Shown: positions 5,470 through 36,501, counted from the stretch's first letter. The stretch is DNA of 64,000 nucleotides from Somniosus microcephalus (GCA_052327205.1 CM126223.1:62806001-62870000); one strand, 5' to 3'. The notes: a model not told the origin generated them from the sequence alone. Translations and numbers: made by a program.

Positions 5470-6999
5470 TTCAATTCAATTCAATTTTATTTGTCATCTA
5501 TGCAACAGACGTGTGTACTGCACAATGAAATGTTGATTTTTACGAGTCCTCCCAACATTGGAATAAATATGGCACAACAATGATAAAAATACTAATAGAA
5601 AGACAGTAATAATAAATAAAACAACAGTAATAAATAATAAATTAATCGTTCATGAGTCTTATGGCCTGGGGGTAGAAGCTGTTTCGAAACCTGTTGGTAC
5701 GAGACCGTATGCTTCGGTATCTCTTACCGGACGGGAGCAGGGCGAAGAGGTTGTGGCTGGGGTGACTCATGTCTTTAATGATTCTCGAGGCCTTCCCCCG
5801 GCACCTCTCGGGGTAGATATCCTGCACAGCAGGTAGTTTAATTCCTATAGTGTGTTGTGCAGCTTTCACTACCATCTGTAGAGCCTTGCGGTCTGTGGCG
5901 GTGCAGTTGCCATACCAGGTAGTGATGCAGCCGGACAGGATACTCTCGATGGTGCACCGGTAGAAGTTGGTGAGAATCTGGGGGGCCAGTCCAAATTTCT
6001 TCAGTCTCCTGAGGAAGAACAGGCGTTGGCATGCCTTCTTGGTTACAACGTCGATGTGATGGGACCACGTTAAGTCCTCCGTAATGAATACACCCAGGAA
6101 TTTGAAGCTGCTGACCCTCTCCACCTCAGCCCCTTCGATGTAGATTGGGGTGTGTCCCTTCCCCTGCCGCTTCCTGTAATCCACGATCATCTCCTTTGTT
6201 TTGATGATGTTGAGGGAGAGGTTGTTGTACTTGCACCATTCTCCTAGGGCTCTTACCTCCTCACTGTAGCCTGTCTCGTCGCCATCTGTGATCAGGCCTA
6301 CAACGGTAGTGTCATCAGCAAACTTGATGATGGAGTTGAAGTTGTGCGTGACCACGCAGTCATGAGTAAACAGGGAGTATAGAAGGGGGCTGCGCACACA
6401 ACCCTGGGGAGCTCCCGTGTTCAGGATCAGTGTGGAGGAGGTGTTTCTGCCTATTTTCACCACCTGGGGTCTTCCCGTCTGGAAGTCCAGGATCCAGTTG
6501 CATAGGGAGGTGTTAAATCCTAGCTCACTGAGCTTGTTGACAAGCTTGGAGGGGATAATGGTATTGAATGCTAAACTATAATCAATGAACAACATTCTCA
6601 CATAGGTGTTCCTCTTATCCAGGTGTGATAAGGCAGTGTGCAGTACAGTGGCGATGGCATCATCCCTAGATCTGTTTGGGCGGTAGGCAAATTGGAGTGG
6701 GTCCAGTGTGTCAGGTAGTAACGAGTTGATGTGGGTTTTGACCAGCCTCTCAAAGCACGTCATGATGACAGAAGTGAGTGCTATGGGGCGCTAGTCGTTT
6801 AAACAGGTTGCTTTTGTTTTTTTGGGGACTGGAATAACCGATGTCATCTTGAAGTGGGTGGGGACTACAGACTGGTACAGTGAACGGTTGAATATATCCG
6901 TAAACACGGCTGCCAGCTGGTCAGCGCATGCTCTAAGGACACGCCCAGGGATTCCATCTGGACCGGGTGCTTTGTGGGTGTTCACTCTCTTAAAGGTCT
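5470..6999 (-). mobile_element. Rex1/Babar LINE, 5'-truncated
   Basis: RT with [27 protein letters not shown] and KFADDTT motifs; C-terminus [15 protein letters not shown]. (TTGAA)n tail after AATAAA. 7-bp TSD TGCTTTA at 5463-5469 and 7000-7006. Confidence 0.92.
5642..6999 (-). pseudogene. Rex1/Babar reverse transcriptase ORF fragment with one in-frame stop
   Basis: ORFs 6791-6985 and 5642-6763 are in the same frame. They are separated by TAG at 6791-6793 in place of the Tyr of the ND(Y)RPIALTS motif. Confidence 0.88.
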
Positions 7000-23410: not shown

Positions 23411-24136
23411 CATTTTTCAAATCCTTGCATTCCTGTTGTATCCATCATCTCTGACTGCGATAGTTCTTGTACAGCAGTATAATGAACAATTTGTTTATGG
23501 AGAGTCCCTTGTTCCATAGTATTTGAGGCATATAATGCTTGGGCAGCAATGAATGAAGAGCTCCTTATGTACTACAAAGATATGACTTTTATGAGGACCT
23601 CTCGCATAGACATCATGACTGGGAACACTGTGCTTTTTACTGTGCAAGATTGCTTGCTGATATTTTCAGTATCACTTTATTTACACAGTTTTATATATAC
23701 AAGATGGAAGCTGGATTTTTGTTTTGTCTAAAGAGGGCATTGTTCCTTCATGGGTGTCATGACCATCAACACCATTGTCCTAGATGTATACTATACTCCA
23801 GTATTATTTTTTTGAAGATGCCTGAAAGAGGTCAGTTATTCTTGGTTCAGTGACAATCCATTAGCACTGCTCCAACCCCAAGGGTATTGAGAGCAAAGTA
23901 ATACCTCCGAAGATAAATGCGGCCCAGCACCACCCTCCTTGTTGCATAAATTCATGTGCAGGTTCCAGTGTGATACCTGTGGAGGGGTGAGCAGCTTTGA
24001 ACCCATGTGTAGAGCTGCAGTAAGCAATTTTATTTATGATTTGGAAGAGTTTTCCAGATTTAATTTTTTTTAGCTCTCTTCAATTAAAAAAAATTGTTTC
24101 TTCTTCACAGTCTCCCTCCCAATTAATAATTCAACT

Positions 24137-24529
24137 TTATTGTCATTGTACAATGCACAAGTACATGAACAACGAAATGTGATCTTGCAAGCTCCCATGA
24201 GTCCAGTACAAATAACATTAAACGTAAATAGCACCGTCCTGGGAGAAGCAAAGCCGCTGCGTCTGTGCGCGCCGCCATTCCATTTCCACCATTCCTCCTG
24301 TCCGACAATCTTCAGCCCAACGCCCGGGCCTGCTCACCAGCCGCCCCTCCCGGGGCTCCTTCCGTGACCTTCTCACCAACCGCCCCTCCTCGGGGCTTCT
24401 TCCGTGACCTTCTGCACCTGGTCTTTCCCTGATGGTCACCCCTCCAGGTACTAATCCAGGCCTGGCTCTGCTTAGCTTCCAAGCCTTGCCAGTGACCCTG
24501 TCCCTAGTCCCAGGAACAGGGCTTACAGC
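24137..24529 (-). mobile_element. 5S rRNA-derived SINE (SINE3-type) with Rex1/Babar-like tail
   Basis: Minus-strand GGAAGCTAAGCAGAGCCAGGCCTGGATTAGTACCTGGAGGGGTGACC aligns to the 5S A box, IE and C box. 8-bp TSD ATTCAACT at 24129-24136 and 24530-24537. The tail resembles 5480-5555. Confidence 0.78.
24333..24411. repeat. ~39-40 bp tandem duplication inside the 5S SINE body
   Basis: CTCACCARCCGCCCCTCC(T)CGGGGCTYCTTCCGTGACCTT occurs twice. Confidence 0.8.
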
Positions 24530-25753
24530 ATTCAACTATCTTTTTTAAATGACTCCAAAGTTGTTTCCTCCATTCCCTCACTCTTTGCGTTAAGAACATT
24601 TTTGAGATCGGGCTTAAATTTACCTTTCACCAGTTTGAATCTGTGCCCTTTCCTACATGTGTGACTGACCTTGAAGCATTGCTGTGGATTTACCTCTTTC
24701 ACTGTACGATTAAATATCTAATATAATCGCCGACAAGCACAAGCCACAGTAACTCTTAAAGCAGAGATAACTGTAAGAGGCACAAAATGCTTCTGATACA
24801 ATATATAGAGCCATGGACTCATTAGAAGATAAAATATTATCATTCAGTATTTCAAAAAAAGGACGGCGAAGGGGAAAAAGTTGATGCATTCAGATAACGA
24901 CTCTCACTGGTGAATTTTAATGGTGTTGAGACTTTCAACATTATCTTTTGAACTTCACAATGTTGAAATTCTGGTTGCTAGAGACCCACGTGTCTTTGGG
25001 CGATGCAGCCTGGCTCTTTCCCATTTGTAAATCTTGTTGAATCGCAATTGATTGAACGTGGGTTTTTCCAAATCAATAGCAAAGTCACTTACCGTCAGTT
25101 CTGTAGTCCAGTTTAGCCAGGCTGCCTGTGTTTATGGGAGCAAATATTTGCGCAGTTGGAGGTCAAACTCTCGTCCTCTGAGCAAATAATAGCTGGGCAC
25201 ATTCTTAAACTTTCAAACCACTGATCGACCCTTAGCCTGCATAGACCGTCAAACCGTGATCTGAATCGTAAAAGCATGTAGAGTAATTTTGCTCTACACT
25301 AACTCATTAGGCTATGTAAATTTGGCGGTGTGGTGGAAATCGTATAGGACAGTATCCCAGTGCCTTCAAGGCATATTTATCCAATGTCTACTTGCTAGGA
25401 CTAAACAATAAGCTAATATAGTGATTTGTTAAATGGGTCCTATCGCTTTTAATGAAGGTTTATCTATTTAGAAATAAGATAAATGCATTTGAAATGAGAG
25501 TCCTGACTTCCCAATAAGATTTATACGATTTTGGCCAATGCATGTTCATATACAGTTGATTAAAGCTTTCTAATTGTAGTATGGTGTCCAAAGTCCGAAT
25601 AAGGGCACTATCCAAAGATTTCGCCATTTTATTTATTTTTATTATGAACTTGGTTGCTTAAGGTGCAGCCTCAGCCCAGGGTGCAAAGTGTGTAATATGA
25701 GGCTGAGTCAAGACCTTCCAAACTTGCCTGTTGAAGGTCTGCATTGAAATAAT

Positions 25754-34466: not shown

Positions 34467-35762
34467 TTATGATCTGAAATTGTTGAACTCGATATTGAGA
34501 CCGGAAGGCTGCAGAGTGCCTAATCGGAAGATGAGGTGCTGTTCGTCGAGTTTACGTTGAGCTTCCGTGGAACAGTACAAGAGGCCAAGGACGGTGAGGT
34601 CCGAGTGGGAATGGAGCGGTGAATTGAAATGACAGGCGACCGGAAGCTCGGGGTCACCCTTACGGACTGAACGGAGGTGTTCCGCAAAGCGGTCACCCAA
34701 TCTGCGTTTGGTCTCCCCAATGTAGAGGAGACCGCATCGTGAGCAGCGAATACAGTATACTAGATTGCGAGAAGTACAAGTAAATCGCTGTTTCACCTGG
34801 AAGGGGTGTTTGGGGCCCTGGACAGTGGGGAGGGGGGGAGGTATAGGGGCAGGTGTTACATCTCCTCTGCTTGCACGGGAAGGTGCCAGGCGAAGGGGAA
34901 GGGCTGTTTGGGGTGATAGAGGAGTGGACTAGGGTGTCTCGGAGAGAGCGGTCCCTGCGGAATGCTGAAAGGGGAGGGGAGGGGAAGATACGTTTGGTGG
35001 TGGGATCACTTTGGAGGTAGCGGAAATGCCGGAGGATGATCCGTTGAATGTGGAGGCTGGTGGGGTGAAAGGTGAGGACAAGGGGAACCCTATCGTGGTT
35101 CCGGGAGGGAGGGGCAGGGGTGAGGGCAGAGGTGCGGGAGATAGAACTGACACGGTTGAGGGCAGTGTCAACCACGGTAGAGGGGAATCCTCGGTTGCGG
35201 AAAAAGGAAGACATGTCTGAAGCACTAGTGTGGAAGGTGGCATCGTCGGAGCAGATACGGCGGAGGCGGAGAAACTGGGAGAATGGAATAGAGTCCTTAC
35301 AGGAAGCGGGGTGGGAGGAAGTGTAGTCCAGGTAGCTGTGGGAGTCAGTGGGCTTGTAGTAAATATTGGTCGATAACCTATCCCCAGAGATGGAGACGGA
35401 GAAGTCGAGGAAGGGAAGGGAAGAGTCAGAGATGGACCATGTGAAGGTGAGGGAAGGGTGGAAATTGGAGGCAAAGTGAATGAAATTGTCAAGTTCGGGG
35501 CGAGAGCAGGAAACGGCACCGATACAGTCATCAATGTATCGGAAAAAGAGGTGAGGGAGGGGACCCGAGTAGGACTGGAACAAAGATTGTTCCACATAGC
35601 CCACGAAAAGGCAGGCATAGCTAGGACCCATGCGGGTACCCATGGCAACACCTTTGATTTGGAGGAAATGAGTGGAGTTAAAGGAGAAGTTGTTCAATGT
35701 GAGAACAAGTTCAGCCAGGCGGAGGAGGGTCGTGGTGGATGGGGACTGGTCGGGCCTCTGTT
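34467..35762 (-). pseudogene. Penelope RT + GIY-YIG endonuclease ORF fragment with a single +1 frameshift
   Basis: Removing one G from the G7 run at 34832-34838 joins ORF 34693-35910 to ORF 34467-34796 (CNTCPYTSPLPTVQGPKHPFQVKQRFTC). Confidence 0.85.
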
Positions 35763-36501
35763 CTTTCGGGCCTTTGCCAATGGCCAATGGCCAACCACGA
35801 GTAGGTGGGAGAGAGAATGGCCTGGGGTGTGACTTGGCCTCAGTATCAGACATACTAACATCTGGGGTGAAGATTTGCCGCGGCTCTTTCGAGGGTGAAG
35901 ACCTGAGCAATTGTTGCTGTAGTAAATTCTTTGGGATGGTGGGGAAAATTCAGGGACGGCTTGAGGCCTCATCAGACTGTTGTTGCAACTCCTTCATTTA
36001 GTCTGTTCGACACACAATCTATCGGCAAACCAAAGGGGTGGGAAGCGTACGTCTGTCTTTTTAAAAAATGCAGCCGATCGTTCAGAGAAGAGTGAGTTGA
36101 AAGGTGTTGCTTTTTCAACTGCTTAGAACAAACTTGCTCAGACACTGGATGCATTTTACAATGTTTGCTTAATAGCAATAATTGGATAAATGGAGCACTT
36201 TCCTCATTTATGTGGGCGTTGCCATTAAGATGGATTAACTGTCTGAAAGCTTTACAGTGTATTAACATTGCTGCTGATGATGGCAGCTCCCGAGTCTGTA
36301 ATAATGCAAATAAGGCGACCCTTCTGCCACTGGAGGCAGTCTGCGACGCCAAAAGCAGTGACCTCGTCCTGCACCTCTGGCCAGCACCGCAGCCTCTGGC
36401 TACGCAGATCTAAAGCGGCTTGCCACTAGAGGGAAGCCATGTTTTGTTGGCTGCCAGTGAGGGGAATTGGGCCCGTTTGCAACCTCACAATGGCTACGAA
36501 G

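Follow-up and report, generated by a model that had tools for sequence, protein, structure and literature searches.

Structure of the element at the locus

The window analysed here is a stretch of 64,000 nucleotides (nt) from Somniosus microcephalus (GCA_052327205.1 CM126223.1:62806001-62870000), with positions counted from its first letter, and its subject is a short interspersed element (SINE) on the minus strand at 24123..24524. The limits given are drawn from the copies of the element, from their ends and from the corresponding site in a further organism, E. The element combines a head derived from 5S ribosomal RNA (rRNA) with both ends of a long interspersed element (LINE) of the Rex1 clade, of which two families, Rex1-A and Rex1-B, are described below. 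Papers are cited throughout for the portions of them consulted. The features of the element and its flank are as follows.

24123..24524, minus strand: whole SINE copy, 402 nt with its short tail repeat
24495..24522, minus strand: 5' hairpin, stem of 12 base pairs (bp) and loop of 4 nt, not derived from 5S
24410..24495, minus strand: zone with an excess of 1-2-nt insertions (element positions 30-115)
24408..24483, minus strand: 5S rRNA-derived part (5S nt 44-117), 81.6% identical over 76 columns; the 5S terminator is not carried
24463..24477, minus strand: A box, 13/15 identical to the 5S gene of the same genome
24454..24460, minus strand: intermediate element, 6/6 identical to 5S in copy L002; the window copy has one extra base
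24429..24446, minus strand: C box, 13/18 identical to the 5S gene of the same genome
24329..24418, minus strand: GC-rich unit of 39-40 bp in 2.2 tandem copies (Tandem Repeats Finder score 143)
24279..24328, minus strand: purine-rich linker, no match to 5S loci, Rex1-A or Rex1-B
24226..24278, minus strand: Rex1 5'-end segment (LINE nt 5-57), 44/53 identical to Rex1-B
24128..24225, minus strand: Rex1 3' untranslated region (UTR) segment, firm in 24128-24202 and looser upstream
24123..24136, minus strand: family 3' end and (TTA)n tail, holding the 8-mer read as a 3' target-site duplication (TSD); found in 80/87 copies
24530..24537, minus strand: host flank read as the 5' TSD, 5 nt outside the 5' end and within 24523-24890 of the empty allele of organism E

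A young SINE family with thousands of copies

The element in the window is one copy of a real and young SINE family. When the host genome (6.4 Gb) was searched, all 40 matches scored, out of 959 candidates, extended to near the whole SINE length at 95-100% identity and were spread over many contigs. Exact pattern searches returned 3,164 matches for a 22-mer of the tail, 2,492 for a terminal 25-mer and 1,389 for a 23-mer of the head, with 0 for the controls, and the first 30 loci each of the tail, end and head patterns were all the SINE or its 3' fragments. The overlap between samples places the family size at 3,650-4,130 copies; a head-based estimate of 5,200 was set aside because insertions break the head pattern. 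Among 40 copies anchored at the tail or the end, substitutions relative to the window copy have a median of 1.8% (range 0-6.6%), and the 5' start falls within the first 8 nt in 19 and within the first 24 nt in 27. In 33 copies of the family starting at positions 1-3, no shared base precedes the 5' end. In 10/38 copies, 38 nt are deleted where the two Rex1 pieces meet, and this lineage is also present in RNA reads. Pairs of SINE copies at most 1.2 kb apart were observed both in tandem (L086/L120) and inverted (L220).

The SINEBase criteria (PMC3531059) describe SINEs as elements shorter than 1 kb, interspersed, present in at least 100 copies, at least 60% identical over at least 60 nt to transfer RNA (tRNA), 5S or 7SL RNA, and distinct from pseudogenes of these RNAs. 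The present element is about 400 nt long and interspersed, not tandem, its tail alone has 3,164 exact matches, its head is 81.6% identical over 76 columns to the 5S gene of its own genome, and its copies have in common a fixed body as well as differences from 5S. By these criteria it is a SINE and, judging from the head, as a SINE3.

Limits of the element and an empty allele

The first-pass annotation had placed the element at 24137-24529, between exact 8-bp repeats taken to be a TSD. The 8-mer followed by (TTA)n is, however, the 3' terminus of the family: of 87 copies extending to the 3' end it closes 80, and upstream it occurs in 1/89, the window copy only. A contig of organism E aligns to window 23573-24093 and then to 24523-24890, with 31 letters between the two blocks compared with 429 in the window (one contig, depth 5) and flanks that are about 5-6% different. 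This site is empty yet retains the upstream 8-mer, which is therefore older flank. With one 8-mer belonging to the family's own 3' end and the other to the old flank, the TSD reading fails and the element spans approximately 24123-24524.

A genome-wide search for copies with their own TSDs had also been proposed, and it produced the copies, in their thousands, but no TSD signal above controls. In 75 near-full copies the best repeat averages 4.17 nt compared with 3.81 nt in mismatched pairs and reaches 8 nt in 1/75; when the test is anchored at the junctions, the longest repeat is 6 nt and the means are 2.39 and 2.09 nt, with very short AT-rich overlaps still possible. Likewise, no clear TSD was seen by eye in 12 of the 16 listed loci of full-length Rex1-B.

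Organism E also carries a relative of the SINE, which is shorter, has the hairpin and a C box nearer to 5S, lacks the tandem repeat and joins the Rex1 pieces at another junction. Together with the empty site, this indicates that the design predates the split and that the window insertion does not. The sequencing runs of organisms A, B and C carry at least half of the SINE words, and those of D-G fewer. The 5' flank at window 24530-24620, including the false TSD, translates to short peptides in two frames; these presumably resemble the C-terminal end of a degraded second open reading frame (ORF2) of CR1 type, and gave no BLAST match in the loci compared.

The 5S-derived head and its hairpin leader

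The alignment of the SINE to the genome's own 5S gene has an E value of 4e-14 and a score of 90, against a best score of 35 in 2,000 shuffles, and the 5S-derived A box, intermediate element and C box described in the first-pass annotation are borne out at the identities listed above. A comparison with the Rfam 5S model, which had been suggested as a check, does not by itself reveal the match: cmsearch scored the window copy at 19.1 bits (E 0.76) and two further copies at 30.0 and 28.6 bits, all below the cut-off of 38 bits. The A box starts at element position 48, as against position 50 in 5S; its textbook limits are +50 to +64. The 5' ends of the copies cluster at this distance of 48 nt in front of the A box, which is where a 5S promoter would put them.

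The leader in front of the 5S part had been described as diverged 5S. It shows no similarity to 5S (local score 10; 93% of shuffles score at least as high) and instead folds as a hairpin spanning nt 3-30. The first 32 nt fold with -19.8 kcal/mol (z -3.8; 0/200 shuffles as stable), and the fold of the whole 47-nt leader is weaker (z -1.8; 9/200 shuffles as stable). Searches for the source of the hairpin returned no 5S similarity, no tRNA and no other Rfam family, and a search for it outside the SINE found none, as all 14 hairpin matches with another next base were still SINE copies. The leader is thus a replacement of 5S nt 1-43 and not drifted 5S. Part of the 3' arm of the hairpin is duplicated in copies L217, L222 and L223 and at an RNA loose end at window position 24522, a hint of slippage in the hairpin. 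Among the LINE-1 chimeras of primates, nt 46 is a frequent breakpoint of the 5S fragments (PMC13174262); it lies close to the 5S start at nt 44 here, and the two breakpoints may be connected.

5S genes are transcribed from internal A and C boxes with the help of TFIIIA and end in a T4 terminator (PMC5095917). In the SINE, binding of TFIIIA and TFIIIC to the 5S boxes would fix the start some 50 nt upstream, regardless of the leader. If the start is set by distance in this way, the 5' part of 5S would be replaceable by a hairpin of the same length. Deletion studies from 1980 are said to have found that type 1 promoters set the start by distance irrespective of the leader, and the leader swap may be a natural version of that classic finding.

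Both ends of a Rex1 LINE

Downstream of the 5S part, the tandem unit corresponds to the duplication of about 39 bp that had been noted in the body; contigs of organism E join across most of it. Together with the linker it forms a middle of about 130 nt. The remainder of the element resembles Rex1-B, a LINE that was first found through a pattern avoiding the SINE's own context, of whose 6 matches 2 were LINE 5' ends. The 5' end of Rex1-B is present in at least 40 nearly identical copies (927 candidates, 40 of them scored), and its tail has 15,328 exact matches. It is about 3.1 kb long and has a single open frame, of 998 codons in locus L167, with matches to RVT_1 (E 8.5e-30), PF09004 (E 2.9e-14) and an endonuclease domain (E 8e-4, but below cut-off); the best protein matches are fish reverse transcriptases with PF09004, mostly 60-73% identical. 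The family is young, with a median of 1.0% in 14 top-hit copies and mostly 96-98% identity in 30 tail-anchored copies. The tails of these 30 are (TTTGA)n in 19, (TTA)n as in the SINE in 5, (TTATGA)n in 4 and other in 2, and since copies at 96-98% identity differ in three kinds of tail repeat, the unit changes quickly within one family. In one Rex1-B copy (L169:260-330), the first 25 nt or so are repeated in inverted orientation just upstream of the 5' end.

Rex1 elements are described as being without ORF1 (PMC13343379), and the clade as having a single ORF that encodes endonuclease and reverse transcriptase (PMC6274825, PMC13343379). In word searches of the CR1-group consensus supplement of PMC13343379, the 5' words match only Rex1-named elements among the matches listed, and at their starts (2/2, 5/5 and 2/2). 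At the peptide level, published Rex1 primer sites are found on Rex1-B with matches of 6/7 and 4/7 and a spacing of 581 nt; as DNA, the primers gave no match above shuffles. The ORF layout, the 5' words and the primer peptides together indicate that Rex1-B belongs to the Rex1 clade.

Both ends of Rex1-B match the SINE far above shuffles, in agreement with the Rex1-type tail and the two-ended, Rex1-derived body that had been proposed. The 5' segment (44/53, 83%) scores 70 (highest of 1,000 shuffles, 34), the tail is 80-82% identical over 76-79 nt with a score of 96 against a shuffle best of 56, and all 13 listed full-length Rex1-B loci match the SINE at both ends. A body motif that the first-pass annotation had linked to Rex1 5' starts does open full-length Rex1-B copies as well as named Rex1 consensuses. 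The opening word of Rex1-B resembles the YY1 site with which human L1 begins. When window 24278-24272 is compared with Rex1-B nt 1-12, the SINE is without the first bases of the LINE, as if an RNA polymerase II (Pol II) initiator had been dropped.

The LINE present in the window itself is a Rex1-A copy.

5474..6994, minus strand: 5'-truncated Rex1-A copy with a (TTGAA)n tail and one in-frame stop

It had been named as the partner of the SINE, but is more distant, with a tail score of 65 compared with 96 for Rex1-B. The two LINE proteins are 55-65% identical (65% over 451 amino acids), and Rex1-A is abundant, young and has another 5' end. As a donor it was rejected on the lower tail score and the absence of any BLAST match to the SINE in 6 long loci. 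Full-length Rex1-A copies open with two tandem 5' UTR units of about 200 bp (L102:1390-1640, minus strand; L104:1537-1940; L105:1715-2140; L106:1784-2186), and 5' subunit arrays have been described for ORF1-less CR1-group elements (PMC13343379). At L103 (G000:C4:152119500-152127000), a 5'-truncated Rex1-A lies in frame after an apparent protease region of a long terminal repeat (LTR) retrotransposon, giving a 1,251-codon frame that is probably due to chance insertion. Elsewhere in the window, 34693-35949 on the minus strand is a stop-free frame of 418 codons with no Pfam match, probably repeat sequence.

Extra bases in the leader and 5S part

Insertions of 1-2 nt are concentrated in the leader and the 5S part. 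In 102 copies there are 61 in 7,677 bases at element positions 30-115, none in 1,746 bases of hairpin and 19 in 25,795 bases downstream. Among the 27 near-full copies anchored at the tail or the end, the counts are 24 in 2,287 bases and 8 in 6,912 bases downstream (10.5 vs 1.2 per kb, p 4e-9), a ninefold excess with which a MAFFT multiple alignment agrees, and 18 of the 27 carry at least one insertion. A Rex1-B 5' control has 2 insertions in 7,580 bases but consists of top BLAST hits, which are biased against gaps; an equally gap-biased top-hit set of the SINE still has 22 insertions in 30 copies. Alignments of 20 5S genes from the array contain zero gaps. One such insertion is seen in Illumina RNA reads of two runs (22/79 and 8/83 reads), which argues against assembly error.

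Of the 61 insertions, 47 extend no run; in this group of 47, the insertion is a T in 34 and comes after a G in 35. From work on R2, non-LTR reverse transcriptases are known to append untemplated bases, chiefly A, on running off a template and jumping. A T on the sense strand corresponds to an A in the complementary DNA (cDNA), so that the reverse transcriptase is favoured as the source. Most likely the extra bases arise during integration, with the enzyme pausing or jumping on the 5S-like RNA and adding untemplated A to the cDNA, at slightly less than an even chance for this last step. The insertion load does not depend on copy age, at 0.71 per copy in the younger and 0.66 in the older half (89 near-full copies; Spearman 0.19, p 0.08).

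A tentative but serious alternative is that the insertions predate reverse transcription, arising as RNA polymerase III (Pol III) stutters through its own bound factors, or that they were inherited from many sources. The zone at positions 30-115 does overlap the internal promoter, and one insertion is common to three copies of one deletion lineage and was probably inherited. In contrast, the same sites were reused with different bases (38 events at 25 positions), and a non-CpG substitution is common to both members in 4/34 pairs whose insertion is the same, compared with 237/3,916 overall; as substitution sharing is near background, most insertions look independent. As for stuttering, 5S RNA could presumably not tolerate about one insertion per molecule.

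Transcription and mobilisation

Taken together, the family is very probably a young 5S SINE with the first 53 or so and the last 75-100 or so nt of Rex1, likely transcribed by Pol III and likely mobilised by the Rex1-B protein. We infer transcription by Pol III and mobilisation by Rex1-B, the latter from the likeness and the age of the two families. The first-pass annotation was right that the sense strand of the window copy has no four-T run. At the point where Rex1-B ends the shared 5' segment with TTTT, the SINE has three T, and because this T run and the 5S terminator are both gone, the transcript would pass through the whole element. Subsequently, the Rex1 enzyme would bind the 3' tail and prime on the repeat. 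As to origin, an internally deleted Rex1 likely gained a 3' fragment of 5S via template switching. The pairing is supported by a co-resident Rex1-B of like age that has an open 998-codon frame and a (TTA)n-tailed sublineage.

Several points weigh against this reading. The absence of TTTT is weak evidence, as it is also missing in 17% of dinucleotide shuffles, and TTTT is present in 20/75 near-full copies, mostly via a change at one CpG. The C box differs from 5S at 5/18 positions. No start peak was found at the predicted +1 in two RNA-Seq runs, in which the flanks of the window locus had no read coverage. A conserved stem-loop in the tail is without support (z -0.13; in 4 sequences, 0/11 pairs show a compensatory change). 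Identity between the tail and Rex1-B reaches only 80-82%, and a closer partner may exist unseen. A headless intermediate with two Rex1 ends was found in 0/30 Rex1-B tail loci, and the sole match to the LINE-start pattern is a full SINE. Some insertions may also be inherited, in view of the deletion-lineage trio and the 4/34 vs 237/3,916 comparison. In the same two runs, family reads occur on both strands and many continue into unrelated flanks; among the indexed runs, none is listed as an RNA carrier of the SINE words. One copy (L140) starts at the Rex1 segment, possibly by chance truncation.

It is unlikely, although worth weighing, that the working partner is another Rex1 family, either Rex1-A or one as yet unseen, and that Rex1-B merely shares ancestry with the donor. 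The identity to Rex1-B of 80-82% in the tail and 83% in the 5' segment is low given that both families diverge by 1-3% within, Rex1-A is likewise abundant and young, and a named skate Rex1 consensus has, by eye, a 16-nt word in common with the 5' segment of the SINE that is absent from Rex1-B. Yet no LINE turned up among 30 tail-anchored or 30 end-anchored loci, the LINE-start pattern with SINE-type letters gave 1 match, a SINE, and it is a Rex1-B sublineage that has the tail repeat of the SINE, whereas Rex1-A has the lower tail score and another 5' end.

Rather improbable is an origin through Pol II, transcribing either from the Rex1 5' segment or as part of host transcripts; the element would then be a non-autonomous derivative of Rex1 with the 5S boxes as passengers. 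Such an origin would fit the retained LINE 5' end, RNA-Seq reads that resemble host-transcript read-through, the Rfam score below cut-off and the insertions in leader and boxes in 18/27 copies. However, of the 40 anchored copies, 27 begin in the hairpin and none at the Rex1 segment. [quoted passage not shown] Finally, a one-off 5S/LINE chimera of the kind known for 5S and LINE-1 in primates (PMC13174262), a 5S pseudogene or an assembly artefact can practically be dismissed, given thousands of copies with identical junctions, SINE words in the runs of at least three organisms and an orthologous empty site.

Relation to known SINEs

The Repbase survey by Kojima (2018; PMC5786205) reports LINE 5' pieces in the middle of SINEs from RTE and Vingi only, and two-ended derivatives from RTE, Ingi, Vingi and R2 only; in the text consulted, Rex1 is absent, and it is left open whether the short donor list reflects sampling or mechanism. 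The closest relatives in design are CoeSINE5, SINE-1_Pmo, HaSE3 and Ped-1, which likewise have a 5S head and a LINE 5' piece joined to a LINE 3' end (PMC5786205, PMC3747384), and the identities in table 1 of PMC5786205, 74-91%, are similar to those of the present SINE. As it matches a single LINE family both at the start (44/53) and at the 3' end (80%), the element has the two ends that define such derivatives in that survey. It differs in its donor, which is Rex1 of the CR1 group and not RTE or Vingi as for the CoeSINE5/Ped-1 type, in keeping the extreme LINE 5' end and in having the first 43 nt of 5S replaced by a hairpin. Measured against the 2018 survey only, Rex1 would thus be a new donor to a known two-ended design.

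Other SINEs have in common with this one either the head or the type of tail. In SINE3-1 of zebrafish and AmnSINE1, the 5S head and type 1 internal promoter are alike (PMC3747384, PMC7245038), but a Deu domain and a CR1/L2-type tail follow; vertebrate SINE3s are described as having been moved by the CR1 clade (PMC7245038). SINE2-5_NV with Rex1-24_NV in a sea anemone, and SlmI and Hpa I with RSg-1, have Rex1-type LINE tails (PMC3747384) but differ in their tRNA heads and in having the LINE tail only. The shark and ray SINEs HE1, SacSINE1 and CmiSINEs also differ, with tRNA heads and CR1- or L2-type tails (PMC3747384, PMC5499810). In the literature search, no account of a 5S SINE bearing both Rex1 ends came up; Repbase, Dfam and the SINEBase tables lay outside the comparison and may hold the family.

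RSg-1 is a Rex1/Babar LINE, and since OS-SINE1 of salmon and trout joins a 5S head to an RSg-1 tail, a 5S head with a Rex1-type tail is itself probably not new. OS-SINE1 has a Deu domain between the two, and the portion of PMC3747384 consulted lists no LINE 5' piece for it. As a DeuSINE it probably differs further from the present element, the vertebrate Deu domain being about 330 bp long (PMC4824008) and the middle here about 130 nt and partly absent in organism E. In the consulted portions of PMC7245038, PMC5499810, PMC4824008, PMC5381603, PMC6274825, PMC3472496, PMC4698564 and PMC3728117, no such element is named.

Implications

With this family, Rex1, a CR1-group LINE that has no ORF1, would join the few LINE clades from which SINEs have taken both ends. 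As the pair is young and the LINE frame intact, the reason for keeping the LINE 5' end becomes testable. Lineage-specific insertions without TSDs, such as the one in the window, are usable as phylogenetic markers, and the insertion zone is a large in vivo record of the miscopying of a SINE. We hypothesize, as a possibility with the odds somewhat against it, that Rex1 is a third LINE clade that builds two-ended SINEs and that this family in addition records a copying error of about one untemplated base per copy, confined to the leader and the 5S part, because the Rex1 reverse transcriptase stalls and jumps on a 5S-like RNA that is protein-bound or nicked at G. If this is true, the thousands of copies would amount to an in vivo map of where the enzyme pauses, and in most copies the promoter would already be damaged on insertion. 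Pausing of this kind would also account for exchanges of the head, among them that of 5S nt 1-43 for the hairpin.

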